In this document: one piece after another, positions 2,154-28,130 of the stretch
Layout of the letters: each line of letters starts with the position of its first letter
Position numbering within the stretch: the stretch's first letter is position 1
IMG/VR virus record: IMGVR_UViG_3300047301_000066
Coordinates: 1 to 31,815 of that record
DNA: 31,815 bases
Reading direction: 5' to 3' (one strand)
Source: a virus
Lineage: Duplodnaviria > Caudoviricetes
The notes under the pieces: model-generated
The model's database searches: none
What the model was told of the DNA's origin: nothing
What the model saw: only the letters and a program-made list of their open reading frames with translations
Translations under genes and position numbers: made by a program

Positions 2154-2843
2154 ATGTTTTCCTGTTTAAAATAGCTATAGCGGGCTGGGACTTGACTCTG
2201 TGTTATCCAGGAGCTATATCCTGGCGGGCTGGTCACCGTCGGCTGCGTACAGCCGGCCACATTAAGTCCGGTATGGGAGGAGAAACGAACCCATACCTAA
2301 AGACACTGAGGAACTTACTCTGTGTCTCTGTTCTATGTACATCTCTAAGCATAGATTCGGACGATTTATTTGTGGGGCCTGTATAACGTGGTGGGGCCGT
2401 AGGCCTAAAGTATTAACCCATGGGTCTGCGACGCTACAAAACAAAGAAGAACACGGAGATGTTTGGAGAAGTGAGGGGTATGTATGGAGAGTGTAGGGGA
2501 AAGTACAGGACCCTACATCTTTAAAACGGCTCCCTACCGCCTTCAAAGAAGGCGAGTGTAGGGAGTGTAGGCTATATAACAACTTTAAAGAGAGGTATAT
2601 AGGGAATAGGGGGGCCCCCACGCCCTATATCGGTGGGGGAGCGTAATACACCGAACACCACATTTGCGGGAGGTCTGAGTTTTTGGGTGCACAGCCCACC
2701 ACACTACACACTTGCTCCTAAAACGGCTTCCCAGAGCCATTTTAGCTATGTATGGTCGTGTATGGTCAGCCTACACACCCCACTCCCGCCTACACATCCA
2801 GGGTGCACCCTGCACCCCCGGGCTATTCGGTGTACAAATATAT
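2154..2843. other. divergent non-coding control region rich in hairpins and repeats (candidate origin, terminus or structured RNA)
   Basis: No credible ORF; more than 10 inverted repeats; GAGTGTAGG x3; TAAAACGGCT x2; 14-bp palindrome CAGGGTGCACCCTG at 2799-2812. Confidence 0.65.
2819..2843 (+). promoter_or_regulatory. putative phage promoter motif (CGGGCT-N10-CAAA), near-leaderless
   Basis: CGGGCT attcggtgta CAAA tatat ATG(2844); no Shine-Dalgarno. Confidence 0.5.
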
Positions 2844-3281
2844 ATGACCCCCACCACTCTACTCGCCCTGGACCCTTCACTAACTAACACGGGCTGGGCC
2901 GTATATACCGGGGGCGTACTTGTCCAGTCCGGGTGTCTAGGCAAAGTTACCGTGAAGTCTTTCTACGCAAAACTTACTGCGTTGCTTGCCGACTACTCGC
3001 CAGACTTTGTAATTACAGAGGATGTGTTTTGTGGACCAAACAAACAAACTTATAAAAAACTCTGCTGGCTACAAGGCGTAATACTGTCTCAATGTTCCCC
3101 AATTATCAAAACCCCTCATTTGTGGAGGGCTGAGTGGACTGCTATTACGGGAGTCGTGCTGCCCAAAGGAAAAGGGTCTGGCCCATTAATTAAAAAGTTA
3201 TTACAGGAGCACTACTCTACCAAAACAAACGATGAAGCCGAAGCGTGCGCCATTGGATTAACAGGAATAACACATGAGTAA
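2844..3281 (+). CDS. RuvC-like Holliday junction resolvase
   Basis: LLALDPSLTNTGWAV, VITED and NDEAEACAIG match the RuvC catalytic pattern; likely start at 2844. Confidence 0.85.
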   Translation: MTPTTLLALDPSLTNTGWAVYTGGVLVQSGCLGKVTVKSFYAKLTALLADYSPDFVITEDVFCGPNKQTYKKLCWLQGVILSQCSPIIKTPHLWRAEWTAITGVVLPKGKGSGPLIKKLLQEHYSTKTNDEAEACAIGLTGITHE

Positions 3282-3489
3282 AATAGTTGGAGCATAAAAC
3301 GCAGAAAGGGAGTGACTCCGCCACTCCCAATCCCGTTGTTTAGTTAGCCCGAGAACCGGACTAGCCAACTTACACCGCAGGACTGTACACCAAGAATAAC
3401 TGCTTCTTCCATCGATTGTATTTGCATACCTACCTTTACCTTTATCCATAGCCAGCTACTAATTGTAATTGGTTACTAGAGTACACTGA

Positions 3490-3511
3490 TGGGTGTGCTG
3501 TTATCCAAACA
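3490..3511 (+). promoter_or_regulatory. putative phage promoter motif (TGGGTG-N10-CAAA)
   Basis: TGGGTG tgctgttatc CAAA c AT, then AGGAG RBS and GTG at 3524. Confidence 0.5.
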
Positions 3512-3523
3512 TAGGAGTCATAA

Positions 3524-3859
3524 GTGAAACTTAAAAATCTATACCGCACAGGCCTGAAAGACGAGTACGTAAAGGGAGCCACCCTAAGCCCGAACTTGGC
3601 TGTGTTTCGGTGCGTTACCCAGTCAGACCTAGAAGCAAAAACTAACGCAATTATCCTCACCGGTGGACAAGCAGAAGCCACGATGGGTGTGGTGTTGTAC
3701 GAACTCCTAAGCTGCGGGGCTGTGTTCCAAGAACGGTGGGATTGCGCCCCCGGGGATCACTTCTTGCTCAGCCACCTGGCCGGTGATAAACTTGGGGTTT
3801 ACGTATTTGCTCAAGCAGATGATATCGTACTCCGTTGGGGTAAGGAAATATATGAGTGA
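3524..3859 (+). CDS. GroES/Cpn10-like co-chaperonin (divergent)
   Basis: EAKTNAIILTGGQAE resembles the mobile loop (EEKTKGGIILPD); DCAPGDHFLLSHLAG resembles VKVGDKVLFSKYAG; ends in DDIV; 111 aa; AGGAG RBS. Confidence 0.6.
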   Translation: MKLKNLYRTGLKDEYVKGATLSPNLAVFRCVTQSDLEAKTNAIILTGGQAEATMGVVLYELLSCGAVFQERWDCAPGDHFLLSHLAGDKLGVYVFAQADDIVLRWGKEIYE

Positions 3860-4355
3860 ATGCAATATGAAGTCTGGCGTATATCAAATTGTGTGTCGAG
3901 CGACTGGCGAGCGATATATTGGAAGCTCCAACAATATCCCTGTTCGATTTGCGAAACACCGGTACAAGCTAGGGCTAGGCAGCCATGACAATTATAGACT
4001 GCAGTCTGCTTGGAACCTTTATGGAAAAGAGCAGTTCCACTTTGGGGTTATCGTGTATTGCGACAGTGAAGATTTGCGAATTAAAGAGCAAAATTACATG
4101 GATGTTATGAATCCATCTTTCAATATATGCCCCAGTGCTTTTGGTTCAACGGGAGTCAAAAGGCGCCAGAAAACAAAAGATGCAGTCAGGATTGCAAAAC
4201 TAGGTACTGGTAAAGGGTATTGTTTTCACAAACGAGACAAATGCTGGCAGGCCGCAGTTAATATTGGACCCAACAAGCAAAAAACTTTTAGATTTTCTAT
4301 TGAGAGTGATGCAATTAACTTCATAGCAAAATACCGCGAGGACATCTCCAAATGA
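3852..4355 (+). CDS. GIY-YIG homing endonuclease with C-terminal AP2-like domain
   Basis: SGVYQIVC...YIGSS..RFAKH, EQNYMD, FNIC; C-terminus KGYCFHKRDKCWQAAV. Likely start 3852 after AAGGA. Confidence 0.85.
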   Translation: MSECNMKSGVYQIVCRATGERYIGSSNNIPVRFAKHRYKLGLGSHDNYRLQSAWNLYGKEQFHFGVIVYCDSEDLRIKEQNYMDVMNPSFNICPSAFGSTGVKRRQKTKDAVRIAKLGTGKGYCFHKRDKCWQAAVNIGPNKQKTFRFSIESDAINFIAKYREDISK

Positions 4356-4624
4356 CCAGTGACTCCTTACGAGCTTTGCTCGCCCAACACGGTACTGCTG
4401 CGGTGGACATCCTCAAAGACGCCCTAGCAGATCCGCTGTGTCCAAAGAAACTTAAATTAGACGTAGCCCGGTACATTATAGACGTGGTAGTTGCGGGTAG
4501 TGACTCACAAACCCCCAATGATAATCTCGCAAAAATACAAGCGTTGTTATCGGTCAAACTACCGCCGACTCCACCTGCGGCCGCCCCAGCCCCCAAGCGT
4601 AAACGCGGAGCCCCTAAAGTATGA
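4352..4624 (+). CDS. putative terminase small subunit
   Basis: Small helical protein with a basic tail, ATGA-coupled directly upstream of the large terminase (positional inference). Confidence 0.5.
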   Translation: MTSDSLRALLAQHGTAAVDILKDALADPLCPKKLKLDVARYIIDVVVAGSDSQTPNDNLAKIQALLSVKLPPTPPAAAPAPKRKRGAPKV

Positions 4625-6090
4625 ATCCAGACACACTTGCTAGCATAGCTAAGCTTCTGAAGACTTTAAATCAAGCCACAGGCACGCTAGACGAGTGGGT
4701 GCTGTACCCCCACCAGCTAGATCTGCTCGCAGCTGCGTGCTCTACACGTCGTTTAATCGTGCTTAAAGCTCGGCAGCTTGGTTCTTCTAGCGTGTGTACG
4801 TTCTATATGTTGATGCAAGCCATTGCTAACACAGGATTCCACGTAGGTATTGTGGCGGACTCATACGACAACGCCCAGGAACTCCTTGCAAAGATAAAAG
4901 ACTATTGTGCCCAGCTTGGTATCGCTACTACGACGGAGAACACTCGTAAGATAGTTTTAGCTAACGGTTCTAGTTTGTCCGCTATCACGGTGAACTCAGG
5001 CATCGGCAAAGAAAACAAAGCAGGCCGGTCTAAAACGTACCACGCGTTGTTGTTATCCGAGTGTGCATATTACCGCAATAGTTTCGCCGTGTTTGCTTCG
5101 TTAACCAGCGCGCTAATACCTGGCGGGCAAATCATCATCGAGTCAACCGCTACACCACAACCAACGATCTTTAAACACATTTGGAACAGCGATTTGTCCG
5201 AGTACACAAAAGTCTTTTATTCTTGCGAGGTCCACCCCAACTACAAAGACAATCCCGCCGATATACCTGATGACGTGTATCAGTCCCTAGCTACCCGGTG
5301 GGGCTTTACCGACCGATCTACTGCAGCCTTTTGGATGCGCAAACTTAACGTAGATTTCGGTGGAGACATACAAAAACTTCTACGGGAATTCCCTGTATTG
5401 CCCGAACACGCGTGGGCAGCCGCTAGTGGCCGCTGGATCAACGTAGATCCTCCGCTGGCCACGGTCACAGGTTACCTAGGAGACACGACGTGCTTCTATC
5501 CTACGTCGTTTGGCGGGCATTACATTGTAGGTGTGGACATTGCCTCAGGCACAGGCAGAGACTCTAGCGCTGTGCTGGTGTGGGACTTGGTGCATCGACG
5601 CGTAGTAGCGTTGTGGCACTCTAATACAACCCAGATGGACGGCCTAGCAGCGGTAATAAAGTCTATTAATGCGGCGTACAAACCTATTGCGATTGTTGCA
5701 GAGCGCAACGGTATCGGCGGTGGACTACCAGGATATTTTACGGGACTTACGTTGCCTATGATATACCACACCACCACAGAAGCTACCAAATACTCTAGTT
5801 TGTTGCAGGTTAAGCGGGTATTGGAGGCAGGTGCTTGTGCAGACCAGCAGTTCTCCACAGAAGCGCAGCAACTTACTTACGATCTGGTCGGTGAAAAAGA
5901 AAGATTTTCTCACGCAGGCGATACATTAATGGCACTGGCGATGTGTTTACACTATGAGCGGCAGTTCGAATACGTTACGACCCAGCCAGCCCCGCGTCCT
6001 CCAGTACCAGAAGGCCACTATGACATGGACCGGGCGCTACGCAAAGTAGAAAAACGCCGCCGACAAGACGCAGCCCGTGGTATATTCTGA
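4621..6090 (+). CDS. terL: terminase large subunit
   Basis: LYPHQ, LKARQLGSS (Walker A), LLLSECA (Walker B), IIIESTA coupling motif, nuclease motif IVGVDIASGTGRDSS. Confidence 0.92.
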   Translation: MNPDTLASIAKLLKTLNQATGTLDEWVLYPHQLDLLAAACSTRRLIVLKARQLGSSSVCTFYMLMQAIANTGFHVGIVADSYDNAQELLAKIKDYCAQLGIATTTENTRKIVLANGSSLSAITVNSGIGKENKAGRSKTYHALLLSECAYYRNSFAVFASLTSALIPGGQIIIESTATPQPTIFKHIWNSDLSEYTKVFYSCEVHPNYKDNPADIPDDVYQSLATRWGFTDRSTAAFWMRKLNVDFGGDIQKLLREFPVLPEHAWAAASGRWINVDPPLATVTGYLGDTTCFYPTSFGGHYIVGVDIASGTGRDSSAVLVWDLVHRRVVALWHSNTTQMDGLAAVIKSINAAYKPIAIVAERNGIGGGLPGYFTGLTLPMIYHTTTEATKYSSLLQVKRVLEAGACADQQFSTEAQQLTYDLVGEKERFSHAGDTLMALAMCLHYERQFEYVTTQPAPRPPVPEGHYDMDRALRKVEKRRRQDAARGIF

Positions 6091-6139
6091 GGCATGCTAT
6101 CAATAATAACCCAATAGTTCCTCAACCAGGAGAATAATT

Positions 6140-6562
6140 TTGCAAAAGAACCCATACATCGTAGGAAATGACACACCACAGAACTGGGGAACCCCTAGCA
6201 TCACCCAGGCTGAGCTATTGCAGCCGTTACTAGAAGACCTGGATGACGTGCAAACCGAACTCGCCGCCAGAGTATTTTTGTTCTGTGAACTTTATTTGAC
6301 TCCCACACAATATCGCCGGTGGATGAGTTACTTTACGCTGGGTAGCATTAAAGAAGTTGCCGCTGCTGAAGGGGTGTCTGCTACTGCAATAGCGAAGTCA
6401 ATTAACGGCACACGCCCAGGTGAGTCCTCGGCATCTAGGTTGAAGTCCCCGGTAGTAAAGTTGCGAGAAATTATCTATGCTGACCTGGTAGTTCAAGAAC
6501 TTCTTGCTAAGATCGCCGCCATTCAAGTTCAAATCAACGACATCGCTCAAAACACGTATTAA
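6140..6562 (+). CDS. HTH protein resembling sigma-70 region 4; candidate transcription regulator
   Basis: LTPTQYRRW...GSIKEVAAAEGVSATAIAKSI; TTG start with AGGAG RBS. Confidence 0.65.
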   Translation: MQKNPYIVGNDTPQNWGTPSITQAELLQPLLEDLDDVQTELAARVFLFCELYLTPTQYRRWMSYFTLGSIKEVAAAEGVSATAIAKSINGTRPGESSASRLKSPVVKLREIIYADLVVQELLAKIAAIQVQINDIAQNTY

Positions 6563-6570
6563 GGAAACAC

Positions 6571-6885
6571 ATGACTACCGCTATTACCCCCAAGCCCACT
6601 GTTGCCAGCCTAACCCAGGAACTTGCTGAAGCTAATGCTAGACTAGACGAACGAGAGGCCCTATTAGACGTGCTACTAACCGAGCTGTTGACGTCAAAAG
6701 ATTTTATTTGTACGCACATTAGAATGCTGTGTGTTGCTTCAGGCGGAGAGATCGACTTGCAGATCCTAGCCACCAAGTACGGTATGAACATGGCTCACAT
6801 CGGGCACATCGATGCCGCTGGGCAGCACTTTGTAGCCCGTGGTATGTTGCTCCGCGGACCACGAGTAGGAACTTACCGAATTTAA
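6571..6885 (+). CDS. hypothetical protein with N-terminal coiled coil
   Basis: AAGGA RBS; its stop shares TTAA with the convergent gene. Confidence 0.65.
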   Translation: MTTAITPKPTVASLTQELAEANARLDEREALLDVLLTELLTSKDFICTHIRMLCVASGGEIDLQILATKYGMNMAHIGHIDAAGQHFVARGMLLRGPRVGTYRI

Positions 6886-8321: not shown

Positions 8322-8351
8322 ATTGTCCTCCACTCTGAAACCATGTGTACC

Positions 8352-9863
8352 TCAATTCGTTGGCCTGGTTTTGCCCCAGCCAGAAAATTCTATGTTTGCT
8401 ATCGGAGCAATACGTGTTCCGCCACCCGACCATGCTAGCTCCACGTCGGGCGCGTCACCACGTACGCTGCGCTGCATACGCCTAGACCGGTATTCACGCT
8501 CTACGAGTAACGCACTTACCGACCATACGTCCGTGCCAACGACCCTAGAGCCTTGTGGTGCTGGTACTGTAGCGGTACCCGTAGAGCCACGGCACTGGGA
8601 TTGCATTCTGACGCCTGCTCGGTCTCCGCCGATGGTGATTTCCCGCAGAACCGGGGACATCTTGGGAGAAGTTTCGATATTTTTGCACACGTACCCAACC
8701 GGGATAGACTCCAGTGGCGTTGGAACCGCACTAGTAGGAGTAAGACCTATGTCTACAGATCCCCACAACGCTACAACACCTACGTCCGTTAGGAGTATGT
8801 CCGTACCTTCGCTGTTCTTTAGGACACCAACGACGTTAAACGTAGAGCCACCAGTATAAGCGTTGCCCGTAGAATCCGCGCTAGGATAAATCCACGACGT
8901 TAAGCTAGAATCCAGATCGATTTGACAAACCCGTCCACCGATTGCTACGTAAAAACATGACTCTGCTGGAAATATCGCCCCTAGTCGGTAGTCACCCGCG
9001 GTGCCAGGCCCCACTGGAGCGGCCAAAGAACGCCTACGACGGTAATTGGTTAGGTCTCTGCGTTGAAAAGTTCCCAAAGATATCAGCCCGTCTTTGCACA
9101 ACCCCGCTGTGGTTCCACGTACGGTAGCTGCGTTATTGGGATAAGTGCCTTGATAGCCCGGTAGGCGTACTATTGACCCTTGGATCTGATAACCAGCCAG
9201 GGCATCAGGTGGAATTTGGTATGTAGCATCGGTGCAAACCACCACCAACGCCCCGCCTTCGCCTGCTTGAAACAAATCCAGCACTGTCCCGCCAAAACTT
9301 GCGGTATTTTGCCCGCAAATCGTGCGGGGTTCTGTGCCAGGGTCGTTTATGATGATTTGGTTGGCATACGCCCACACAAACCGGTCCGCAAAGCCACATA
9401 CACGACCAGGGAACAGCGTCAAGTCAGGGGTATCTGGGTTAATAGAGTCCACCGCTCTAGCACGCACCAGGGTACCGCCTATGAAGCCCCACAACGGAAA
9501 TGGTAAGCCGGGAGAATTCACTACAATTTGATTATAGTTGATTGCTACGCTAAAAGGAGTACGACTAGCTAGTTGACCTATTGTGTAAGACCCTAGGCAC
9601 TCCATTTCGTCTGAATAAACCCACCCAGTGCACTCGTTTACGGCGTCAACAGAGAACAAATAATGGAATACTTCGCCGGTGTTGGCGGATTCACAAGAAA
9701 ACCCACTTACTATAGCAGTTTGGGTACCAGCGGCCGTACGGGGAGTGACAACTCCAAGGTCCTCGACCCGCAATATAGTTTTCAGGCCGGGTCTGGTTTG
9801 CAGTCCCTCTGGCCCACTGACTACGTTGTGGAGTTCAGATTCGTTTATCAGGTTAATTTCCAT
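8352..9863 (-). CDS. putative tail tubular B / nozzle protein (T7 gp12 or P22 gp10-like)
   Basis: N-terminal NVV..PEGLQTRPG motif, FADRFVWA, beta-strand-rich 503 aa. Confidence 0.6.
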   Translation of the reverse strand: MEINLINESELHNVVSGPEGLQTRPGLKTILRVEDLGVVTPRTAAGTQTAIVSGFSCESANTGEVFHYLFSVDAVNECTGWVYSDEMECLGSYTIGQLASRTPFSVAINYNQIVVNSPGLPFPLWGFIGGTLVRARAVDSINPDTPDLTLFPGRVCGFADRFVWAYANQIIINDPGTEPRTICGQNTASFGGTVLDLFQAGEGGALVVVCTDATYQIPPDALAGYQIQGSIVRLPGYQGTYPNNAATVRGTTAGLCKDGLISLGTFQRRDLTNYRRRRSLAAPVGPGTAGDYRLGAIFPAESCFYVAIGGRVCQIDLDSSLTSWIYPSADSTGNAYTGGSTFNVVGVLKNSEGTDILLTDVGVVALWGSVDIGLTPTSAVPTPLESIPVGYVCKNIETSPKMSPVLREITIGGDRAGVRMQSQCRGSTGTATVPAPQGSRVVGTDVWSVSALLVEREYRSRRMQRSVRGDAPDVELAWSGGGTRIAPIANIEFSGWGKTRPTN

Positions 9864-9885
9864 ATCTTACCGAACCCAGCACCCG
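9864..9885 (-). promoter_or_regulatory. putative phage promoter motif (CGGGTG-N10-TAAG), leaderless
   Basis: Minus strand reads CGGGTG ctgggttcgg TAAG at ATG(9863). Confidence 0.65.
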
Positions 9886-9896
9886 GCGACAGCCCC

Positions 9897-9919
9897 CGGG
9901 TTAGCCGACCCACAAGTCT
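9897..9919 (+). promoter_or_regulatory. putative phage promoter motif (CGGGTT-N10-CAAG), leaderless
   Basis: CGGGTT agccgaccca CAAG tct ATG(9920); no Shine-Dalgarno. Confidence 0.65.
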
Positions 9920-10285
9920 ATGGACCCATATTCACCCGACGAAGACTCTAGCCTGACGGACGAAGAGCGCCAACTTATCCGCCAAATCGAAAACTCCCAG
10001 ACTAGTGACGACTGGGGTAATATGCTTGGTACAGGTGCTGGCCTAGCGGCGGGTGGTGTGGCTACGGCGTTAACGGGTGGGGCCGCAGCTCCACTGATTC
10101 CAGTAATCGGTGGAATTGGCGGGCAAATCGGTGCTTTAATCGGCGGCAATATCGGTGCTGGCCAGGCTAACTCGGCGTCCAACCAACTTGCCGACCTACA
10201 AAAGAAAAAGAATTCACGCAGCCTAGAGCAAGAAGCTCGTCAGCGCGCGTTCTCAACGTTGCTCGGTAAGTACTCTAGTTTTTGA
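9920..10285 (+). CDS. glycine-zipper protein, candidate pilot or ejection protein
   Basis: Hydrophobic G/A-rich segment GAGLAAGG...IGGIGGQIGALIGG followed by a Q/K-rich helix. Confidence 0.55.
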   Translation: MDPYSPDEDSSLTDEERQLIRQIENSQTSDDWGNMLGTGAGLAAGGVATALTGGAAAPLIPVIGGIGGQIGALIGGNIGAGQANSASNQLADLQKKKNSRSLEQEARQRAFSTLLGKYSSF

Positions 10286-10299
10286 TACGGAGGTTATAG

Positions 10300-16482: not shown

Positions 16483-17492
16483 CCCCTGAAGAAAAAAGAG
16501 CGAAAATGCGTGAACTCCTTAAGTGGAAGCAAGAAGCCTCAGACGAAGCGCAGGTAGCCATGGATCTAGACAAGCCTACGTCCCTAGGGGAAATGATTGA
16601 CGTTGCTGGTACTGCGGGGCTAACCGCAGTCACGGGTAATTGGGCGGACGAAGTCGCGGCTGAAGCAGGTGACCTTAGCGATGAAGAAACTCGGTTAATG
16701 CGCATGGAACTGGACGCTCGCCGTAATCGTAATGTAGGTAATGCCGCTGCTGGGTTAGCGGGTGACGTAATAGGGTCATTGGCCCTACCGGTCGTCAAAG
16801 CTGGCAAGGCGGGACTGGCCATAGCTGGGGCTGTGTCGGGCGCTGGTGGAGGTGAAGACCCGGGGTCACGTACGTTAGGGGCGGCCCTAGGTGCGCTGCT
16901 AGGACTCGCTCCTGCTGCGGGCAAAGCGGTTCTCAACAAACTCACGGGTAATGCCGCGGCTAAAAAAGAAGCTGAGGCCCTGATTAAACAATACGCTCAA
17001 GAAACACCAGTGGCTGCCCCGCAAGGAACTGTAGCGGACGTAGGTCTGCTAGAATCTTTGAAAAATAAACTGGGTCTAGGTCCTAAGCCTAAGCCCATTG
17101 ACATACCCGTGGGGCCTGCTAGGGAAATGCCTGGTGAAGTATTTGACCCTGCGGCAGACGCTGCAGTAGTAGTCAGAGGCCCGGGTCTACCTGTAGCTGC
17201 TGGTATCGAAGGCGGTCAAGCCTTGCCCGGTAACGTAAATTTGGACCCTGCTTTGCCTGTTGGTCCCGAACAGCGTGCAGTCAATGAAGCTCTGGCCCGG
17301 TTTGCACCCGCTAGACAAGAACTCGGTGTCGGAGGCGCGCAAAATCCTGTATTAACCGAGGCCATAAAGCAAGCAGATGAATTCAAACGCTTAGCTGGTA
17401 GGGAATTTACCCCAGGCGAGTACCGCGAACTCGTGCAGCTTAAAGTTCAGCAAATTTTGTCGGGTCCTAGACCCCCTAGACTAGAGGATTAA
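16479..17492 (+). CDS. putative DNA ejection protein, related to the preceding gene
   Basis: ATGA coupling; AVTGNWADEV...AAAGLAGDVIGS and GxxxG tracts. Confidence 0.55.
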   Translation: MTPEEKRAKMRELLKWKQEASDEAQVAMDLDKPTSLGEMIDVAGTAGLTAVTGNWADEVAAEAGDLSDEETRLMRMELDARRNRNVGNAAAGLAGDVIGSLALPVVKAGKAGLAIAGAVSGAGGGEDPGSRTLGAALGALLGLAPAAGKAVLNKLTGNAAAKKEAEALIKQYAQETPVAAPQGTVADVGLLESLKNKLGLGPKPKPIDIPVGPAREMPGEVFDPAADAAVVVRGPGLPVAAGIEGGQALPGNVNLDPALPVGPEQRAVNEALARFAPARQELGVGGAQNPVLTEAIKQADEFKRLAGREFTPGEYRELVQLKVQQILSGPRPPRLED

Positions 17493-18267: not shown

Positions 18268-18840
18268 CTATGTAGTCTTAAGTGCCTCAACGTTGGCCAG
18301 ATGCCGAGCCATCATATCTTTCAGGATTCTTTTCGGCTTTGCTGGAGGAGCTCTAGGTACTCTGGTTTTTGCAGGCTCTTTTGTGCTCGCGACAACAACG
18401 GCCGGCTCTATCTTTTGTTCAAGTACTCTTTCAAAGGGCTGGTAGGAATACACAACTTCTCCATCTCCTTTTTCCTTTGGTGTTAGATTTTTGATTATCT
18501 CTATCGCCGTACCATCTGTGACTTGGTCGTTTCTCACGCGCAAGACGTTAAATCCCTTATCAAGGATGCGGTTAGTTTTCCAGCTATCTGTAGCGCGCTG
18601 GGTATCGGTATCGTGATACCCTCCGTCAATTTCAACGCACAAATTAAGACTGTGGATGTAGATATCAACAAAGAATCTGCGCTTTTTGCCGTCTCTGCGC
18701 CCAGCCATGGGCATTTCTGTCTGCACAGATAGATTTGATTCAGCCGCCTGTTCGCAGAGTAGTTTTTCCGCTGGAGTACGCGTGGCCGATTTCCTCAATG
18801 CAAGTAACCTGTCTGTTCTCTGATGCTTCTTCTTTTTCAT
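18268..18840 (-). CDS. DUF559 / Vsr-like endonuclease
   Basis: TPAEKLL, FFVDIY, CVEIDGGYH, GFNVLRVRNDQV. Confidence 0.8.
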   Translation of the reverse strand: MKKKKHQRTDRLLALRKSATRTPAEKLLCEQAAESNLSVQTEMPMAGRRDGKKRRFFVDIYIHSLNLCVEIDGGYHDTDTQRATDSWKTNRILDKGFNVLRVRNDQVTDGTAIEIIKNLTPKEKGDGEVVYSYQPFERVLEQKIEPAVVVASTKEPAKTRVPRAPPAKPKRILKDMMARHLANVEALKTT

Positions 18841-18940: not shown

Positions 18941-19483
18941 TTAGTCACTTTCTCCCCGTTTAACTACGTCCGCCATCCACAACTGCAACGGCTGGGTTAG
19001 CATTTCTCGAATTTGTTCCCGGGTCCAGATGTCTTCTGAAGCAATCCTAGCCGTGGGCATACCTGACGTGTATTCGGTTATGTAACCCCACAGCCCATCA
19101 TTAGCTAGTTGTGCGTACTCCAGGGCGTCTACGGCACCGTATTGTGACAGCAAAGACTGAGCCCGTATTTCTGCGTCTCTTTCGATCTCTAACACCGTTA
19201 AATAAGCTACCAAATTACGCTCAGGTAACAAGTCATACGCGTCCGAATACGTATCAAACACGTCCATGCCTCCTTCTAGGAACTGCAGCAGATGCCCGTA
19301 TTCGTGTGCTAGAGCCATGTACCACTCTGCACTAGCCGCAGCAACGGTTATCGTACGGGTGTGAGGATCAAATAACCCAGCTACTGGCTCGCCAGCATCC
19401 CAGACCAAACTAGTGGTGGGCAGGAGGACTTGTACGCGATGGCGCTTGCATTCGGCTAAGATGTGGGAGAGTAGTTGCATCAT
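18941..19483 (-). CDS. HExxH zinc metallopeptidase-like protein (ImmA/IrrE-like fold)
   Basis: GLFDP...ITV, LAHEYGHLLQ, downstream ERDAE. Confidence 0.65.
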   Translation of the reverse strand: MMQLLSHILAECKRHRVQVLLPTTSLVWDAGEPVAGLFDPHTRTITVAAASAEWYMALAHEYGHLLQFLEGGMDVFDTYSDAYDLLPERNLVAYLTVLEIERDAEIRAQSLLSQYGAVDALEYAQLANDGLWGYITEYTSGMPTARIASEDIWTREQIREMLTQPLQLWMADVVKRGESD

Positions 19484-19506
19484 GCTTTACCAAAGAAAAA
19501 AACCCT
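19484..19506 (-). promoter_or_regulatory. putative phage promoter motif (AGGGTT-N11-TAAA), leaderless
   Basis: Minus strand reads AGGGTT tttttctttgg TAAA gc ATG(19483). Confidence 0.55.
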
Positions 19507-19562: not shown

Positions 19563-20309
19563 ATGAAGAACGCAGTAGTGTACGAAGGTGATAAGTGTTT
19601 TATTCAGGTAACGAACGCAGCAACAGGAGTAATTAGTCGGATCCAAGTAGACCCAGCAGACCTGCCAGTGCTTCTTAACCATTCTTGGCAAGTAAATAAC
19701 ACAGGCTATGCTCGTACAACACAAAAAGCCAATGGTAAGTTTTTCACTACCTATATGCACCGGTTCCTGACTGAGTGCCCCGAGGATCTTGTAGTCAATC
19801 ACAGAGACTTCAATCGGTTGAATAATACCCGTGCAAACATGGAGGTATGTAGCCAGATGCATAATCTGTTGCACAATCATGGCAAAGGGATCCGTCGGAA
19901 CTCCAGCGGACATTGTAGCGCCCAGGTAGGCATTGGCGGAGGAGAGGTACGACTAGGCACCTTCCCGACCGAAGAGGAAGCTAGGGCCGCCTATAACGCA
20001 GCGAAGTCCATATTGCGCAGTCTGCCAATTAGATATACTGACGAAGAACTGCAGCTGGCAATTCTAGAAGTTAAAAAACTCAAATCTACCCACCCACACG
20101 CAGCTCCGCGAACAACAGGAAAAAAGGGGTACGCAAAGGATCCCAAGAGTGGCAAGTACTACGCGCGGTTAATGCGCAATGGAAAACTACATCACTTGGG
20201 CGGGTTTTATACGGAAGAAGAGGCAAGGCAAGCTTACCTAGAGGCTAAAGGAGTTTTCAATGTTGGTGGATGTCAAATGCAAAACACCGGAGTGTCCAGC
20301 TCCTGTTGA
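19563..20309 (+). CDS. HNH homing endonuclease with two AP2 domains
   Basis: YMHRFL...VNHRDFNRLNNTRANM; LGTFPTEEEARAAY and LGGFYTEEEARQAY; AAGGAG RBS gives start 19563. Confidence 0.88.
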   Translation: MKNAVVYEGDKCFIQVTNAATGVISRIQVDPADLPVLLNHSWQVNNTGYARTTQKANGKFFTTYMHRFLTECPEDLVVNHRDFNRLNNTRANMEVCSQMHNLLHNHGKGIRRNSSGHCSAQVGIGGGEVRLGTFPTEEEARAAYNAAKSILRSLPIRYTDEELQLAILEVKKLKSTHPHAAPRTTGKKGYAKDPKSGKYYARLMRNGKLHHLGGFYTEEEARQAYLEAKGVFNVGGCQMQNTGVSSSC

Positions 20310-20463: not shown

Positions 20464-20464
20464 A

Positions 20465-20749: not shown

Positions 20750-20751
20750 GC

Positions 20752-20776
20752 CGGGTTGTGCGGTTCCATAAGATAT
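20752..20776 (+). promoter_or_regulatory. putative phage promoter motif (CGGGTT-N11-TAAG) upstream of scaffold and capsid genes
   Basis: CGGGTT gtgcggttcca TAAG at ATCAG; shares GGTTCnnTAAGATAT with the 9885 site. Confidence 0.65.
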
Positions 20777-20815
20777 CAGCGGACACACCACTGAGTACTT
20801 CTAGGAGTTTTAACC

Positions 20816-21661: not shown

Positions 21662-21683
21662 CTTTTTTTAAGAGGATATACAG

Positions 21684-23060
21684 ATGGCTAATCAAGACGG
21701 AATTTCAGCTAGTGACATTGTAGACTTTGCAGCTCGCGAAGGCAATAAGAAGATCGAAGAGCAAGTTAATATGAAGGCGCGACTTTTTAGCGCGCTCGAT
21801 AAGCAGAAGATGACCGGTAAGCGGGCGATTATCAACATCGTCGCCGGTGGTTTGTCCAGCACCAGCCAGGTCGAGGATTTTGGCGCTCTTCCTACGGAAG
21901 CTGCCTCAACCCCTGACCAGGGCTTTGTAGACGCGGTTGCGTATGTTTCCCGGCTCGGCCTGGGTCGTATCGCCCTCGCTACGCTCTCGGGCGTGGATGA
22001 CTCAGCGGACCTCCTAGACACCCAGATCGGGCTTGCTGCTAGCGATATGGCTCGCCAGGTCGGTCGCGCTGTTTACGGTAGCACCCTCGCTATCCCTACT
22101 GCTTCAACCAACACTGTTCGTCAGGCAGTTGCCGGTGAGGTTGTTACGATGACAGTTACTTTGGCTGGTGGTCTAAGCGACTTCCGAGAAGGTGAAGCGT
22201 ATGTTTTTGAGGCTGCTGCGGTTACGACTGGCTCATTTCCTGTGCTTTGTACCAATGTTGCGATTACTTCCGCTAGCGTAGCTACGGTTACTTTTGTCGG
22301 CGGCCCCACTGGTGTTCCTGGTTACCAGACCACTACCTTTGCAGATAATCTCATGGTTTCTTGCGGTGGTGCTGCTGGCGAAGCTGCTGGCGTTATCGGT
22401 GACATTGCGGTTGGCGACAGGTTCTTCCTGCTCGGTTCACGCGTCAAGCCCACTGCCGGCTCTGCTGCAACTGGTTTGGTTACTCGTGGTGCCGCTAACG
22501 CTTCGCTGGTTAGCCTCGATACCATCTTTGCTTCTGGGTCACTACACGGCCTCGCCAGCGGCGTACTCGGTTGGACCGGTATCTCGTTTGCTGCCGCTCT
22601 GCCTACCGCTCAGACGTTCATGCAGGCCAGCCAGATCATGCAGGCCCGCTCCGGCGACCCCGCTACTCACCTGGTTCTTAATAATGTCGCGGCTGCCGCG
22701 TACGCTTCTGCCCAGGTTAGCTCTGGTTCGTTTCTAACCTCGCTTACCACGCAGCCCCGTCGCAACGTCGACGGCAAGCTTGACCAACTCGGTAAGGGTG
22801 CTGACTCTGAGTCTGGCATCTCGATGTTCGGTCGTCCGATCATCATCGACAATAACTGCCCAGCTAGCCAGTCATTTCTGATCAACAAAGATTACCTCAA
22901 GGTTGGCGAATGGCAGAAGATGCAGGCCGAAGACGAAGGTGGTTCACCGCTGTTGCTGAGCCGCACGACTTTCAGCAAAGAAGTTCAGTATTCTTGCATT
23001 TATAACTTGATCTGCAAGAAGCGGAACGCTCACGCCCAACAGCTCCTAACCCTAGCCTGA
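21684..23060 (+). CDS. major capsid protein (HK97 fold, with insertion domain)
   Basis: DMARQVGRAVYG, MFGRPIIIDNNCP...FLIN, YNLICKKRNAHA; preceded by the scaffold and followed by a terminator. Confidence 0.85.
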   Translation: MANQDGISASDIVDFAAREGNKKIEEQVNMKARLFSALDKQKMTGKRAIINIVAGGLSSTSQVEDFGALPTEAASTPDQGFVDAVAYVSRLGLGRIALATLSGVDDSADLLDTQIGLAASDMARQVGRAVYGSTLAIPTASTNTVRQAVAGEVVTMTVTLAGGLSDFREGEAYVFEAAAVTTGSFPVLCTNVAITSASVATVTFVGGPTGVPGYQTTTFADNLMVSCGGAAGEAAGVIGDIAVGDRFFLLGSRVKPTAGSAATGLVTRGAANASLVSLDTIFASGSLHGLASGVLGWTGISFAAALPTAQTFMQASQIMQARSGDPATHLVLNNVAAAAYASAQVSSGSFLTSLTTQPRRNVDGKLDQLGKGADSESGISMFGRPIIIDNNCPASQSFLINKDYLKVGEWQKMQAEDEGGSPLLLSRTTFSKEVQYSCIYNLICKKRNAHAQQLLTLA

Positions 23061-23081
23061 GTTGTAGTAGTGGCAACTGAA

Positions 23082-23113
23082 GAAACCCCGCTTATTAGGC
23101 GGGGTTTTTCTTT
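23082..23113 (+). terminator. intrinsic terminator after the capsid gene
   Basis: AAACCCCGC-TTATTAG-GCGGGGTTT followed by TTCTTT. Confidence 0.9.
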
Positions 23114-23114
23114 G

Positions 23115-23136
23115 CGGGTTGTGAACTACCCAAGTC
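23115..23136 (+). promoter_or_regulatory. putative phage promoter motif (CGGGTT-N10-CAAG), leaderless
   Basis: CGGGTT gtgaactacc CAAG tc ATG(23137), immediately after the terminator; no Shine-Dalgarno. Confidence 0.7.
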
Positions 23137-23526
23137 ATGCAACTAGAACTATCACCACGCAGCCTACAACGACTTTTCAATAGGCGGATGTCCCGCGAAG
23201 GCTACGTAGCAATCGTAAATAAGTGGGATTCCACTGCAGAAACAATGGTTTGTCACATCGACCGAGCCAACACCACCCGTGGCCTGTTTACTGAGCGCGG
23301 AGATCGCCGTAATAGCATGGGCGTATTGGATATGCCTTGCATAGAAATAAGATTTTCTCGCCTAGTACGTGATACCCAGCGCCAACTCCGCCAGTGGACT
23401 GACGTAATGGAGCGCCGAGACCGCATTGACCTAGCCCGGGAAGCTGAACTATCGGGTGAGCTTAAAGACAAGTGGAACGCCATGCTTAATCGTCACAATT
23501 TCTACCCAGTTACAAGGTCAAAATGA
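23137..23526 (+). CDS. hypothetical protein (Arg-rich)
   Basis: 129-aa ORF, ATGA-coupled to the next gene. Confidence 0.65.
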   Translation: MQLELSPRSLQRLFNRRMSREGYVAIVNKWDSTAETMVCHIDRANTTRGLFTERGDRRNSMGVLDMPCIEIRFSRLVRDTQRQLRQWTDVMERRDRIDLAREAELSGELKDKWNAMLNRHNFYPVTRSK

Positions 23527-24170
23527 TTGTATCCCAAGCCTTATCCCGAGTACGTCAGCGTCTTGACGACGTCAATAATGGCGCGGATTCGCGCTGGTCC
23601 GACATAGAACTACGAGAATGCCTGCAACTAGCCCACGATATGGTGCTATCAGAAGCAGTACGTTACGGCGTTCACCAGTCTTTTCGGCTTACGGCTCAAA
23701 CGTCAGTAGGTAGCGGACAAATCATTGTCCCCCCTAACGTAAAGATTATCTCAGCTTTTTATCTCGCGGGCAACGCTCGCATACCGATCTATGCAGCACC
23801 TCCCCGCAATCGTACTTACGTAGACCTGGGGGTCACGGGGTCAGTAGAGATCGATTATATCGCCCGTAATAACGTTGATTGGTCCAGCGCAGGTGATGCC
23901 TCGACCGTAACGTACGGCACTGTTAACGTAGCTGATCCCGTGTGGGACGCGTATGTCACGGTGCTAGCGGCAATAGATGCCTCTGTAAAAGAAGGGGAAG
24001 CTAATCCGTTGCTGCAAGATCAAGCTGCTAGATTGCGAGAATCCCTGCAATTTAAGCCCACCACCGGCCAGCTCGCAGTTATTCCTGGTGGATTTGGCGG
24101 TGGTGCTCAGCCCGAAGCTAGGCTGTATTACTATATGCGTAGCCCACTTGTCCTAGAGGTATATCGATGA
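23523..24170 (+). CDS. head-tail adaptor / tail tubular A-like protein
   Basis: LSRVRQRLDD...RWSDIELRECLQLA N-terminal helices typical of podovirus adaptors; adjacent to the portal. Confidence 0.65.
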   Translation: MIVSQALSRVRQRLDDVNNGADSRWSDIELRECLQLAHDMVLSEAVRYGVHQSFRLTAQTSVGSGQIIVPPNVKIISAFYLAGNARIPIYAAPPRNRTYVDLGVTGSVEIDYIARNNVDWSSAGDASTVTYGTVNVADPVWDAYVTVLAAIDASVKEGEANPLLQDQAARLRESLQFKPTTGQLAVIPGGFGGGAQPEARLYYYMRSPLVLEVYR

Positions 24171-25999
24171 GCACTAGTAAATACTCCCGAGCTGAACGGG
24201 ATTTAATCGTTGGAGATGACGAACAAATTCTAGCGTTGTTAGAGCAGTGCAAACTAAACGCCACCGGCCCTTTTCGCCGGGTATTAACCCAGTCCCGGTC
24301 TAATGAACGTATTGCCTCAGGCAATCTCGTGCCAGAGCAGTCCGGTAGATCGTTATTTGGTGTGTCGGAAGAATACCTAAATGCCCCGCAGCAAATTCTC
24401 CAAAACCTTGTACTGGCGTGGTCCAGCCAGATAACCAAAGATCGCCCCAGTGTGTACGCGGTTCCTTGCTCAACAGACCTAAGCGCGGTTTCTGCGTCTA
24501 AAATTTACACAAAAGTCATTGAGTACACCGAGCAAGAAGAAGGCGTGCAGAAAAAGTGGACTACTACGGCTGAGAACGCGGCTTACGCAGGTACTGGGTT
24601 CATGTACATTGTATTTAATCCAGAAAAAGCTAGGGTAGTATGGCGTGCTCTAAGCGTGCATGATGTTATCCTAGATGACCGGCCTGAGCGTGAAGACGTG
24701 CAGTGGTGCGTTATTCGGGAGTACATTGACGAGCACGTTGCTGAAGCCATGCTAGACGCAGCCGCCCCAGACGACGCAGTTGCTGGCGCTACACCCGACA
24801 CCGAAACCTACACCGACGGTTCGGGTGATGAGCACCGTGGCGTGCCGAAGTATACTATATGGTATCGCCCAGGTCCTCGGTACGCTAAAGGCCTGTACGC
24901 GTGCATTGTAGGTGACACCGTAGTGGAATCCACAGAATATCCGTATGTTTTTCCTGATGCAGACGGTAGCAAAGATGTTTCATTGCTGCCCGTGGCTTGG
25001 TGGCATTGCCGCGCTAATCGTGGCTCTCCATTGGGCGGGACGTGGGCCAATGACGTGGCTCCCTTGCAAGTACACCTTAATCGGTTGAACTCCAAATTAC
25101 TCCGCAACGCGCAGCAAGCGCAATCTTATTTGGTGCTACCTAAGTCAATGCAGTCCAACGAAGGATTCGATCCCAGCAACGGTATTATCTACACCCCAAC
25201 TGCAGGCCAAGGCGATCAAAAGCCAGAGTGGATTAATCCTGCTCCGTTGGATCCTAATCAGATCCAAGAAAAAGCTAGTTTAATTCAGTCGATGTACGAG
25301 TCTGCAGGTATTTCCGCGCAGTCCACGGGTCAAGCCGGGTCGTCTAGCGGCAAACAGCTTGCCTACCAAGCAGAACTCGACGTGCAAAAACATGCTACTT
25401 CGTTTAAATCTCTGGAGGTCGCTATTCAGGACTCGTGGATCTTAGATTTGAAACTAAAACAGAAATACTACACGGTTCCGCAGCAAATGGCCCTGTCTGA
25501 TGGTGGCAATGCAATGGTTTGGTCAGGCGCTGATATCGCTGGTATTGATATTCGTCTAGAGCCCCGGTCAGCCCGTGATGGTGCTTCGTCATCGAAGACC
25601 GACAAACTTAAAGCTGATATCGCGGCAGGATTTGCACCGATTGAGTCCCTAGCGGCTGAACAGCCTACACCTACTAGTGCTGCTAGCGCCATTATCGCTA
25701 GTGACTTAATCGACCGGTTGATCGCTGGCGAAGACGTAAGCATCGGACCTGAGTCTGCTGATCCAGTTGCGTTGCTAGAAGCAATCGACCGTAAAATTAA
25801 TGAAGCCTTACTAGCCCGAGACATCGAACTAGCTGAAAGACTCAGTGCTTTTAAACAACAGCTCCAGAGAGACCTAGCCATGGCTTCGGCCCCTAGTGCA
25901 GAACCAGCAGGAGCGCCTCCAGCAGCCGCTGCGACGCCGTTGCCGGACACCGTAGCTAATACGGACTCGATAGCAGTAGAAGGAGCCCAAGTCCAGTGA
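24167..25999 (+). CDS. portal protein (P22-like)
   Basis: 610 aa; ITKDRPSVYAVP, AAYAGTGFM, VAPLQVHLNRLNS, ESAGIS...G..SSGKQL. Confidence 0.85.
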   Translation: MSTSKYSRAERDLIVGDDEQILALLEQCKLNATGPFRRVLTQSRSNERIASGNLVPEQSGRSLFGVSEEYLNAPQQILQNLVLAWSSQITKDRPSVYAVPCSTDLSAVSASKIYTKVIEYTEQEEGVQKKWTTTAENAAYAGTGFMYIVFNPEKARVVWRALSVHDVILDDRPEREDVQWCVIREYIDEHVAEAMLDAAAPDDAVAGATPDTETYTDGSGDEHRGVPKYTIWYRPGPRYAKGLYACIVGDTVVESTEYPYVFPDADGSKDVSLLPVAWWHCRANRGSPLGGTWANDVAPLQVHLNRLNSKLLRNAQQAQSYLVLPKSMQSNEGFDPSNGIIYTPTAGQGDQKPEWINPAPLDPNQIQEKASLIQSMYESAGISAQSTGQAGSSSGKQLAYQAELDVQKHATSFKSLEVAIQDSWILDLKLKQKYYTVPQQMALSDGGNAMVWSGADIAGIDIRLEPRSARDGASSSKTDKLKADIAAGFAPIESLAAEQPTPTSAASAIIASDLIDRLIAGEDVSIGPESADPVALLEAIDRKINEALLARDIELAERLSAFKQQLQRDLAMASAPSAEPAGAPPAAAATPLPDTVANTDSIAVEGAQVQ

Positions 26000-26619
26000 G
26001 TCTTACGTATCCAAGTCATAAAATAGCTACAGCTACCACCTATACGCAGGAAACCTTAACGGCCTGTGTTAATGGTAGCGTCGTGGCTATGGATTGTCGC
26101 ACACGGGTACGGATTGGCATTACTGGCGCAGGTACCTTTACGTTAGAGGCGTCTACAGAAGATGGCATGTATCGTATGCTGGTGTGTGAAACCATCGCCG
26201 GTGGATCTACACTGTCGCTGGCCAGTGCAGGAAATACAAAACTTTTAAACGGTTCTTGGGCTCCTACGGTTACAGGTGAAGCGCTAGGCGTTATGTGGAA
26301 TGCCACCTTAAGTAAGTGGGTTGAGTTGTGGCGGTCTCAGGCTGCGGCTTCAGGTGGCGGCACTTACGGACAAGCAACTGCTGCATTTACGTTGGGTATG
26401 GACTCTATTACGGTGTCGGTTGTAGACGCTGGGGTTTCGACGGGGTCTAATATAATCGCGTCAGTCGGTGTGTCACCCGGCAGAGATCCAGATGAATTTG
26501 AATTCACACCGGTAATACCTTACGTAGCTACGATAACGCCGGGTGTTGGATTCGATATTTTAGTAGTGACGAACGGCGACTCTGATGGCGCTTGCTTAAT
26601 TAATTATACGAGGGACTAA
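25996..26619 (+). CDS. putative virion structural protein
   Basis: GTGA coupling; two beta-rich halves joined by ASGGG; VMWNATLSKWVE is a fibre-like motif. Confidence 0.55.
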   Translation: MSLTYPSHKIATATTYTQETLTACVNGSVVAMDCRTRVRIGITGAGTFTLEASTEDGMYRMLVCETIAGGSTLSLASAGNTKLLNGSWAPTVTGEALGVMWNATLSKWVELWRSQAAASGGGTYGQATAAFTLGMDSITVSVVDAGVSTGSNIIASVGVSPGRDPDEFEFTPVIPYVATITPGVGFDILVVTNGDSDGACLINYTRD

Positions 26620-26620
26620 T

Positions 26621-28096
26621 ATGGCTGGTATCACCGGTGGATCAGGAACATCAAACAAAGCAAACGTAGACACGGGGTTTAATCTCCAGGTCGCGCTACC
26701 CAATACGGACGCCCTAACGGGTAGTATACGTCTCAAGACAGAAAATGACGCTGGTGACATCACTGGTTTCCCTACGCTGGGACAGCCTGAGACTTCACCA
26801 GACTTCCGCCTGCGCACGGGCATAGATACTGTGCTATTTTCGGATAGTTTTAACGGTACTGCCCAGAACACCGAGAAATGGAACTATACTTTTGCTACGT
26901 TGACAGCTGTCGAGCCGGGTGCAGGCACAGTTAATTTCTCTGCAGTACAGGGGACAACTTCAGCTCACGGCGCTTTCATGCGTACGTCACAATATTTTCC
27001 TGTGGTATCTACGTCTCCTCTGGCCATTGACTTTACTGGTGCTCCGTACACTGCGGCACTAGCAGCTAATGAGAACTGGCTGGCTGGACTAGGCGTTCCA
27101 GCTGCTGTAAACGCCGCTCCCACAGATGGTTGCTGGTGGAAATTCACCACCGCTGGTTTGGAAGGCATCCTCAAATACAATGGTACTGAGACTTCCACTG
27201 GCATAATTTACCCTTTTGCCTCAGTAACACTCGGCGTCCAAGGCAAGTGGCTGATGGTTGTTGGCGAGCGAACTGTGCAATGGTGGGCTGATGACACACT
27301 GCTTCAAACGCAAGACATCCCTGCAGGACAGGCGACTCCCTTTATGTCTACGTCTCTACCGGTATTTATGCACAAATTTAACACCGGTAACGTGGCAAAC
27401 ACTAATACGATGCGCGTGTCCCGTATAGGTGTTACGCTATACGACGTTGCTATAGGCAAACCAGCCGCACAAATAGCTGCTACCCAGTGCGCGAATTCTG
27501 TGTCTATACAGAATGGCACGACTGTTTCAGGCAACACTGGCATAAACGTACTTAACGCTGCTTATCCCACCACGGCCGCTATCGCAAATGCCACAGCAGG
27601 TGCTACGTTCCTGGGACTAGGTGGGCTGTTTGTAGCTACGGCTCAAGCCGGTACGGCAGCGCTAGCTGGTGATATGATAGCGTGCTCTTATCTTAATCCT
27701 ATTCCAACAGCGAATATATCAGGAAGAAATCTAATTATAACTGGTGTGTATTTGTCCTGCATGAATACCGGAGCTATTGTGGCAGGCACACTTACGAGTC
27801 TAGTGTGGTCTGTAGCCTACGGACACTCAGCTCTCTCACTAGCCACTGTCGAGTCGGCATCATTTGCTACGGGTACAACTCGTGCTCCTCGTAGAAAGAT
27901 GTTGGGAATGATGGAGGCTCCTATAGGTGCGGCAATAGGTGCCCTGTACTCACGTCAAATTGAGCGAGAGTTCTCCACACCACTAGTCGTACACCCCGGC
28001 GAGTATATCCAAGCAGTTGTGCGATTCCGCATAGGTACCGCTACAGCACTACAAGAAATAACCTATGTCGTCGACTTTACCGGTTACTGGGATTGA
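26621..28096 (+). CDS. putative virion structural / fibre protein
   Basis: 491 aa, T/A/G-rich, lectin-like beta content; GAGG RBS. Confidence 0.6.
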   Translation: MAGITGGSGTSNKANVDTGFNLQVALPNTDALTGSIRLKTENDAGDITGFPTLGQPETSPDFRLRTGIDTVLFSDSFNGTAQNTEKWNYTFATLTAVEPGAGTVNFSAVQGTTSAHGAFMRTSQYFPVVSTSPLAIDFTGAPYTAALAANENWLAGLGVPAAVNAAPTDGCWWKFTTAGLEGILKYNGTETSTGIIYPFASVTLGVQGKWLMVVGERTVQWWADDTLLQTQDIPAGQATPFMSTSLPVFMHKFNTGNVANTNTMRVSRIGVTLYDVAIGKPAAQIAATQCANSVSIQNGTTVSGNTGINVLNAAYPTTAAIANATAGATFLGLGGLFVATAQAGTAALAGDMIACSYLNPIPTANISGRNLIITGVYLSCMNTGAIVAGTLTSLVWSVAYGHSALSLATVESASFATGTTRAPRRKMLGMMEAPIGAAIGALYSRQIEREFSTPLVVHPGEYIQAVVRFRIGTATALQEITYVVDFTGYWD

Positions 28097-28106
28097 CCTG
28101 CCCTAC

Positions 28107-28130
28107 CGGGTTCCCTAAACGATAAAGTAT
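28107..28130 (+). promoter_or_regulatory. putative phage promoter motif (CGGGTT-N10-TAAA)
   Basis: CGGGTT ccctaaacga TAAA gt ATCAG, then AGGAG RBS for 28158. Confidence 0.6.

Follow-up and report, generated by a model that had tools for sequence, protein, structure and literature searches.

The DNA analysed here (the window; 31,815 nt, 50.5% G+C) is the whole of the IMG/VR record IMGVR_UViG_3300047301_000066, a phage contig matched in runs labelled freshwater metagenome, with no RNA run among those listed. It encodes a T4-like large terminase (TerL; 4621-6090), a major capsid protein (21684-23060) and a P22-like portal (24167-25999), as well as a RuvC-like resolvase, a VapE/D5-like helicase, an M15 endolysin and a number of homing endonucleases; most of the remaining proteins have no family match. 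Ahead of its virion operons stands a short recurrent element, CGGGTT, which in relatives is part of a 9-bp box, CGGGTTATT, and which is a real feature, very probably serving as a late promoter specific to this phage family.

The CGGGTT element in the window

Four core sites precede virion genes. At 20752..20777 (+), ahead of the scaffold and capsid genes, CGGGTT is followed by a spacer, TAAG and TATC, which would place the transcript start (+1) on the A at 20775. Just past that point, folding against shuffles detects a hairpin (20776..20794, +) that probably acts as a 5'-end stabiliser of the scaffold/capsid mRNA. Beyond the major capsid gene, a hairpin and T run with the sequence of an intrinsic terminator (23086..23109, +; similar in three relatives, L002, L005 and L011) is followed by a second core site at 23115..23139 (+), before the ATG of a conserved 129-aa gene (23137-23526) that heads the portal/tail operon and lacks a Shine-Dalgarno (SD) sequence. 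The remaining two stand back to back: 9897..9922 (+) precedes the SD-less ATG of gene 9920-10285, the head of what is probably the large internal-virion-protein operon, and 9861..9885 (-) precedes the SD-less ATG of gene 8352-9863. Both occupy the same places in the related genome G001 (28862+ and 28857-, respectively).

Four further sites (2819, 3490, 19506 and 28107) are specific to the window and not conserved in relatives. The one at 28107..28131 (+) carries CGGGTT, TAAA, TATC and a small, non-significant hairpin (p=0.33) before gene 28158, for which no orthologue was found in the relatives examined; nor was one found for gene 18941-19483, whose SD-less ATG is preceded by the degenerate site AGGGTT (19481..19506, -), an inverted-repeat arm with 19531+. 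Another degenerate site, CGGGCT (2819..2846, +), precedes the SD-less ATG of the RuvC-like gene, with no box seen ahead of ruvC in the relative L009. The last, TGGGTG (3490..3512, +), precedes gene 3524-3859 at the head of a block containing the terminase genes and a gene for a sigma region 4-like protein; in 4/4 relatives, no box occurs at this position. Gene 3524-3859 itself is conserved, encodes 111 aa, precedes the terminase genes and has no Pfam or PHROG match; judged by eye, we take it to be GroES-like.

The sequence-only reading that preceded this analysis had described these eight sites by the pattern GGG(TT/TG/CT)-N10/11-YAAR and proposed a new class of phage promoter. Its coordinates and spacers are correct, all eight sites are intergenic, and each is oriented into the following gene, the settings being two strand switches (9885-/9897+ and 19506-), the positions after the capsid terminator (23115+) and before scaffold/capsid (20752+), plus 2819+, 3490+ and 28107+. 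With the box in full, CGGGTT-N10/11-YAAR has 4 matches in the window against 0.54 expected in shuffles, and 0/100 shuffles reach 4. The count of eight is nevertheless too low for the degenerate pattern, which gives 16 matches, the other eight all being coding (1862+, 7574+, 14803+, 15171+, 23454+, 31409+, 31703+ and 4469-); adding the AT requirement leaves 10 matches, 2 of them coding. Given an intergenic share of 5.1% of the window, 8/16 intergenic matches correspond to P=4e-7, a value that is overstated because the pattern was drawn post hoc from the same sites. The skew towards intergenic DNA is strong. The AT, said to follow after 1-3 nt, does so after 0-3 nt, and at five sites (2819, 9885, 9897, 19506 and 23115) it is the ATG start codon, a point that had been passed over. 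Three proposed weaker variants fall away: 17461+ lies inside the coding sequence 16479-17492 and ahead of a gene having an SD sequence, 2421+ is about 420 nt from the following start, and 19531+, which lacks a YAAR at N10, pairs with 19506- as the second arm of an imperfect inverted repeat.

Conservation of the box and the likely transcript start

A capsid alignment of 48 proteins retrieved 17 loci, and site counts were taken from one locus per lineage in eight lineages (G001, L002, L005, L007, L009, L011, L013 and L014), excluding six near-duplicates and L015-L017. G001 (32,239 nt, with a terminal repeat of 121 nt) is a complete-looking circle. CGGGTT stands at 15/15 orthologous sites in these lineages (31 copies overall), which, given shared ancestry, amount to fewer than 15 independent events, and this core is near-invariant over lineages of 37-50% G+C. 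Across the 193,774 strand-bases that eight relatives contribute, the full CGGGTTATT has 14 copies, and 14/14 lie ahead of three orthologous virion-operon starts. Counted over distinct relative loci, it is found ahead of the scaffold gene in 8 of the 9 showing the region, and 23-26 nt ahead of the ATG of the gene 23137 orthologue in 9 of 10. Its flanks are unconserved, with at most 0.7 bits at positions 10-22 (numbered from the box C) and in the 20 nt upstream. The scaffold miss, L017, has another gene order, and its scaffold was assigned by eye. The gene 23137 miss, L015, has a capsid 37% identical and keeps the SD-less start (1560-1600, after the capsid terminator) behind a different upstream sequence with no box, possibly an instance of changed specificity. 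In L016, the orthologue of gene 8352-9863 lies behind the capsid gene, with an SD sequence and without a box.

Where the box lies speaks to what it does. The divergent gap (56 nt in the window, 54 nt in G001) holds one box per strand and has no upstream transcript to serve it. The box-to-ATG distance is steady at 22-26 nt, whereas the distance from the capsid terminator ranges from a few bases to several hundred; the box is thus tied to the downstream start and not to the upstream terminator. Upstream of the helicase, DUF559 and sigma region 4-like genes the box is absent, as it should be for early or regulatory genes. On these grounds, i.e., positional conservation, presence on both strands of the divergent gap and attachment to the start, the proposal of a promoter element is well supported, and we are highly confident that the box is a promoter.

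The promoter fits neither the sigma-70 nor the sigma-54 layout, in agreement with the sequence-only reading. TTGACA-like words never occur at any one offset in more than 4/19 core sites, TAnnnT peaks only at position 6, inside the box (8/19), and at position 18 (5/19), and -35/-10 consensus scans of the window picked up none of the eight sites. The sigma-54 arrangement of GG with GC ten bases later is found at 0/19 core sites in either GG register. A discriminator reading, prompted by L005 and L011, with a -10 element just upstream of CGGGTT, was rejected, as no upstream offset reaches 4/19. Also set aside was the idea that the GroES-like gene has a conserved sigma-70 promoter: the match in G001 is 10/12, but L005, L007 and L009 show no clear counterpart, their counts being close to those of shuffles.

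While the box is positionally kept in relatives, the proposed second element is not: YAAR occurs at 1/15 of their sites against 1.1 expected. The conserved downstream word is instead TAT(C/G) at positions 22-26. TATC with its A at positions 23-25 is present in 8/10 non-leaderless sites, compared with 0.19 expected, and at the other sites the A of the ATG falls at positions 23-27. The five motif-proximal starts pair with the anti-SD sequence at only -4.7 to +0.4 kcal/mol; pairing is weak (above -5) at 5/5 of these and at 5/30 others (Fisher p=8e-4, with a threshold fixed after the values were seen; Mann-Whitney p=9e-4). The table behind these values excludes two short open reading frames (ORFs) and misplaces one of the 30 starts by a codon. 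The N-termini behind SD-less ATGs, including that of gene 8352-9863, are conserved with synonymous changes. In gene 23137, residues M1, L5 and S6 are invariant with synonymous changes present, and a public gene call (P0074) begins 17 codons too late. Hairpins of differing sequence start 23-28 nt from the box C at 8/8 scaffold sites (shuffle p 0.002-0.036); in upstream control windows, 1/9 falls below 0.05. In the window, A+T is 74% at positions 17-25, compared with 49% in the spacer. The placement of +1 at the AT is probably right, the SD-less ATGs, TATC and 5' hairpins being in agreement with it, and from sequence we moderately favour the A of TAT(C/G) as the transcript start over a YA four to six bases earlier.

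An earlier start on the same promoter is the competitor that survives best, though we consider it unlikely. Here, CGGGT would occupy about -18 to -13 as an element of the extended -10 type, with TATT(AT) as the -10 element and the A of YA(A) at 18-19 as the +1, leaving 4-9-base leaders on a promoter recognised by a sigma-2/3 surface of host or phage origin. The TAnnnT peak from position 6 (8/19 core sites) would suit such an arrangement, as would a mild enrichment at N10/11 of YA (10/15 of relatives' sites against 5.4 expected) and YAA (6/15 against 2.1), A19 in 8/8 window sites (though these were selected for it) and the pyrimidine-purine rule for transcription starts. However, A7 is present in just 2/8 window sites, so that there would be no -10 there in the window, and TATC at positions 22-26 is left unexplained. 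Moreover, SD-less leaders of 4-9 bases are translated less well than true leaderless mRNA, and a sigma-2 domain was detected in neither the window nor G001.

Two arrangements in G001 are of note. The copies at 16111 and 28862 are identical over a run that begins with the box and takes in the ATG plus one further base, ahead of unrelated genes, which suggests that a promoter cassette was recently copied. At 12414 (L001:8302-8340), the 3' arm and T run of a terminator read CGGGTG-TTTTTTTT, and an SD-less ATG follows 23 nt later, an arrangement that resembles window site 19506-; the terminator arm may double as a box.

Candidate readers of the box

The sequence-only reading had invoked a phage-specific initiation mechanism, for which a polymerase, sigma factor or activator might be encoded. 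No RNA polymerase motif (catalytic DxDGD-type) or family was detected in 43 window ORFs, 31 G001 ORFs and six-frame scans, and no Sigma70_r2 domain in either ORF set; G001 genes beyond the 31 ORFs are homologues of annotated window genes. What did emerge is a candidate with a predicted sigma region 4-like helix-turn-helix fold and no region 2, the 140-aa product of 6140-6562 (+). The model (pLDDT 82) has sigma region 4 domains as its top three structural matches, at middling scores (Z 8.2-8.4; root-mean-square deviation 2.1-3.1 over 73-82 residues) and confined to region 4 and the helix preceding it. A profile search collects 18 relatives, of which several full-length ones match Sigma70_r4, and a 50% identical copy lies directly after TerL in G001, the same position as in the window. 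An extended -10-like word at the TerL stop, TG-G-TATATT (6078..6086, +; a consensus match), could allow host-driven early expression of this gene. A second candidate adjoins it: 6571-6885 (+) encodes a 104-aa, winged-helix-like protein, 35% identical in G001, whose Atlas structure neighbours are IclR/MarR/CRP-type helix-turn-helix proteins (TM-score 0.41-0.51, below the naming bar). Gene 23137 was considered as a regulator and rejected (model pLDDT 58, fold search uninformative). A complex prediction of the sigma region 4-like protein with the E. coli beta-flap region scored 0.05 (mark 0.32) and weighs on neither side. Reading the box probably calls for a phage factor; that this factor is the sigma region 4-like protein is a structure-based suggestion whose likelihood we place a little short of even.

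The mechanism that we propose is as follows. CGGGTT(ATT) would form the upstream element, at about -23 to -18, of a late promoter heading virion operons, and transcription would begin with the A of TAT(C/G), which lies 22-26 bases away from the box C. Host RNA polymerase would be recruited by the predicted sigma region 4-like protein, perhaps together with its winged-helix-like neighbour, and the A/T-rich stretch would melt without a fixed -10 word. The whole virion module would be served by four core promoters, those of scaffold-capsid and portal-tail plus the two standing back to back, three of the four core mRNAs being leaderless or carrying 0-4 extra bases and the fourth starting with a protective hairpin. 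Where accessory or reverse-strand modules interrupt operons, the window's phage would have added degenerate copies of the box. We regard this account in its entirety, i.e., late-promoter box, start at TAT(C/G) and recruitment of host polymerase by the phage protein, as evenly poised between right and wrong.

Several observations weigh against it. For the promoter itself, the +1 position is deduced from sequence, and 4/6 relatives have an SD-like word within the spacer upstream of the gene 23137 ATG, outside the proposed transcript; we explain such words, without proof, as serving read-through transcripts. In the window, the box holds little information, as with YAT(C/G) it matches 21 times, 12 of them coding; the relatives share ancestry, such that site counts are not counts of independent events; and three more distant loci have no box (L015, along with L016 and L017, which have another gene order). 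For the candidate reader, Foldseek gives no match at E<=0.001, the Z scores are only middling, and the window's own protein is without a Pfam match. A distant homologue is encoded in an unrelated phage, G002, which has no capsid match and no enrichment of CGGGTT. The G001 gene follows TerL in a coupled arrangement, within a block that the late promoter could itself drive. Region 4 in the normal holoenzyme reads -35, not -23 (PMC7403470), and the protein would thus have to act outside that geometry. A host-encoded factor could also read the box.

That the reader of the box comes from the host or a helper phage (as an alternative sigma factor or an activator), with the sigma region 4-like protein acting, e.g., in repression or in a block to host transcription, strikes us as distinctly improbable. 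This alternative gains from the complete-looking G001, which has no recognisable polymerase, helicase or sigma-2 protein and thus leans heavily on its host, and from the near-invariance of CGGGTT across lineages of differing G+C content. However, neither a sigma-70 nor a sigma-54 layout accommodates the motif, and matches to the family pattern in IMG/VR look chance-like: among 120 retrieved, 18 open an ORF of at least 60 aa, 63 lie inside open frames, and none reveals another phage family or a helper using the box. Virion genes also need late timing, which usually comes from a phage's own factor (PMC3152322).

A very unlikely arrangement is the canonical one, in which CGGGTT would be a -35 element read by the sigma region 4-like domain, TAT(C/G) 15-17 nt later the beginning of a -10 element, and +1 near position 35. 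That spacing is indeed the canonical sigma spacing and suits the region 4 fold (PMC7403470), but transcripts would then miss roughly the first 10 nt of three ORFs, the initial codons of which are kept with synonymous changes, and the divergent pair has no alternative start to supply those codons. Such a start would also halve the conserved hairpin, and the T that should close the -10 element is not conserved. Least probable is an RNA-level signal (the 3' arm of a terminator or hairpin, or a processing or translation site). CGGG with T's does resemble a terminator end, and the box closes a hairpin at G001 16111, at the G001 divergent pair and at G001 12414. However, at best 5/19 core sites fold better than shuffles (p<0.05). 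Two of them stand back to back, so that an inverted repeat arises automatically, and a third owes its energy mostly to a separate hairpin. A terminator between divergent start codons would have no transcript to stop, and an Rfam scan of the window gave no match.

Bacterial RNA polymerase normally opens promoters via a -10 element (sigma-70) or a -24/-12 pair (sigma-54). A bolder version of the proposed mechanism, which we think unlikely, is that a 32-kb phage lacking its own polymerase uses a stand-alone sigma-4 domain and a winged-helix partner to redirect host polymerase to promoters consisting of one box near -23 and TAT(C/G) as the initiator, without a -10, through sigma-2-independent or re-registered initiation yielding leaderless virion mRNAs. 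If true, this would be a layout outside both sigma classes, with a region 4 module working away from -35. Such a system would be compact, needing <30 bp of DNA and one or two small proteins (100-140 aa), and might serve as an orthogonal switch to drive leaderless expression. Even on a minimal reading, the box provides a transcription map and the true N-termini for an unannotated freshwater phage family.

Known late promoters and the wider genome

The label of a new promoter class is too strong, given that late promoters with a -22 box and a phage activator are already known (P1 Lpa; PMC3152322), as are late activators consisting of sigma region 4 only (LtrA; PMC3753634). The promoter described here would work like an activator-dependent -22-box promoter and is a member of no tested family. 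In phage P1, late promoters at the head of virion and lysis operons carry a 9-bp box centred near -22, have no -35 and require the small DNA-binding phage activator Lpa/gp10 with host SspA (PMC3152322, PMC1891329, PMC8198154; record AF234172). Shared with P1 are a conserved box, its 9 bp in relatives and the missing -35, and with the proposed +1 the box would also lie near -22. By contrast, the P1 box is followed 4 nt later by a sigma-70 -10 hexamer, where TAnnnT at positions 13-17 occurs here in <4/19; the box sequence is unrelated, the mRNAs here would be mostly leaderless, and no Lpa homologue is annotated.

The Ltr superfamily (LtrA of Sigma70_r4 type, RinA and ArpU) comprises small stand-alone late activators of phage morphogenesis genes that contain a sigma region 4-like domain (PMC3753634, PMC3152322), with LtrA activators binding repeats before terS (PMC3753634). 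The product of 6140-6562 is likewise a small protein with a predicted sigma region 4-like DNA-binding domain. However, its gene lies directly after terL, and a single box would stand close to +1 at four or more promoters, not direct repeats at one terS promoter. Ltr activators are small basic proteins from siphoviruses of Gram-positive bacteria; the window portal is P22-like. No direct-repeat region at the four core sites was among the 20 largest repeat families listed, and no RinA or ArpU model among the matches listed.

In phiC31, 8 sense-strand copies of a motif beginning CGGGTTGC, which has its first six bases in common with the box here, stand upstream of early genes and are followed some 10 nt on by TTAC or TTCAG; these are reportedly mapped promoters; its gp12, an annotated sigma factor, does match Sigma70_r2. 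In phiBT1, the first six bases vary and CCGACTCCCTT is kept, from which it follows that the phiC31 core differs from CGGGTT. The likeness is probably superficial; moreover, no gp12 homologue is present here, and only window site 9897 has GCCGAC, in an unconserved spacer. Late promoters of phiKZ and AR9, read by the phages' own multisubunit RNA polymerase, have TATG or TA/G at the start site (PMC5312081). The short TAT-type word at the proposed start recalls these, but they are without a -23 box, and the polymerase search here was negative. No paper describing the CGGGTT motif was found in a literature search whose coverage left out most subscription papers.

Contigs of run X1 extend 342 nt beyond 31815 and 561 nt ahead of base 1, so that the record is not closed. 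Relatives of about 32 kb indicate that the window is probably most of a genome, and on one metagenome contig the capsid gene is present twice, in copies 32,314 nt apart. Two runs do not cover about 128-2858, a gap from which we draw no conclusion. Cultured relatives of the capsid, portal or sigma region 4-like protein were absent from 50,697 phage records, where TerL and helicase matches are distant. GTDB contigs, scanned with capsid or portal alignments for a sign of the host, held no relative, and in IMG/VR, alignments of the capsid, portal and gene 8352-9863 proteins returned the G001 contig only, with single-protein scans returning none.

Other observations bear on replication and accessory functions. 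A 690-nt non-coding stretch (2154-2843) between helicase and ruvC, with 6 of the window's 23 TGTAGG/CCTACA words in facing orientations plus an inverted repeat, is likely the replication origin. G001 has a full virion module and is terminally repeated, with no recognisable helicase, primase or polymerase; its replication is possibly host- or helper-dependent. It encodes a 113-aa stand-alone protein (L020:12437-12778; also in L005, L007, L009 and L010) that is weakly like the C-terminal end of the window helicase (hhalign probability 9%, E 0.0035). In G002, a 527-aa protein without a Pfam match (L024:866-2449, -) adjoins the distant sigma region 4-like gene and, by eye, carries what we take to be family-A-polymerase-like motifs. 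Gene 16479-17492 of the window, far shorter and with no kinase-like match, occupies the position of large, probably injected proteins in relatives (L020:3751-7164, L007:2560-5634 and L012:899-4684) that contain kinase-like stretches (PHROG kinase, E 8e-5 to 8e-3), that of L007 also having an ART-PolyVal ADP-ribosyltransferase domain (E 3e-10). Finally, the 32 kb holds five endonuclease genes, three GIY-YIG, one HNH/AP2 and one DUF559 (344-931, 3852-4355, 18268-18840, 19563-20309 and 28557-29297), and a GIY-YIG-like stretch also lies just past base 31815 in run X1.

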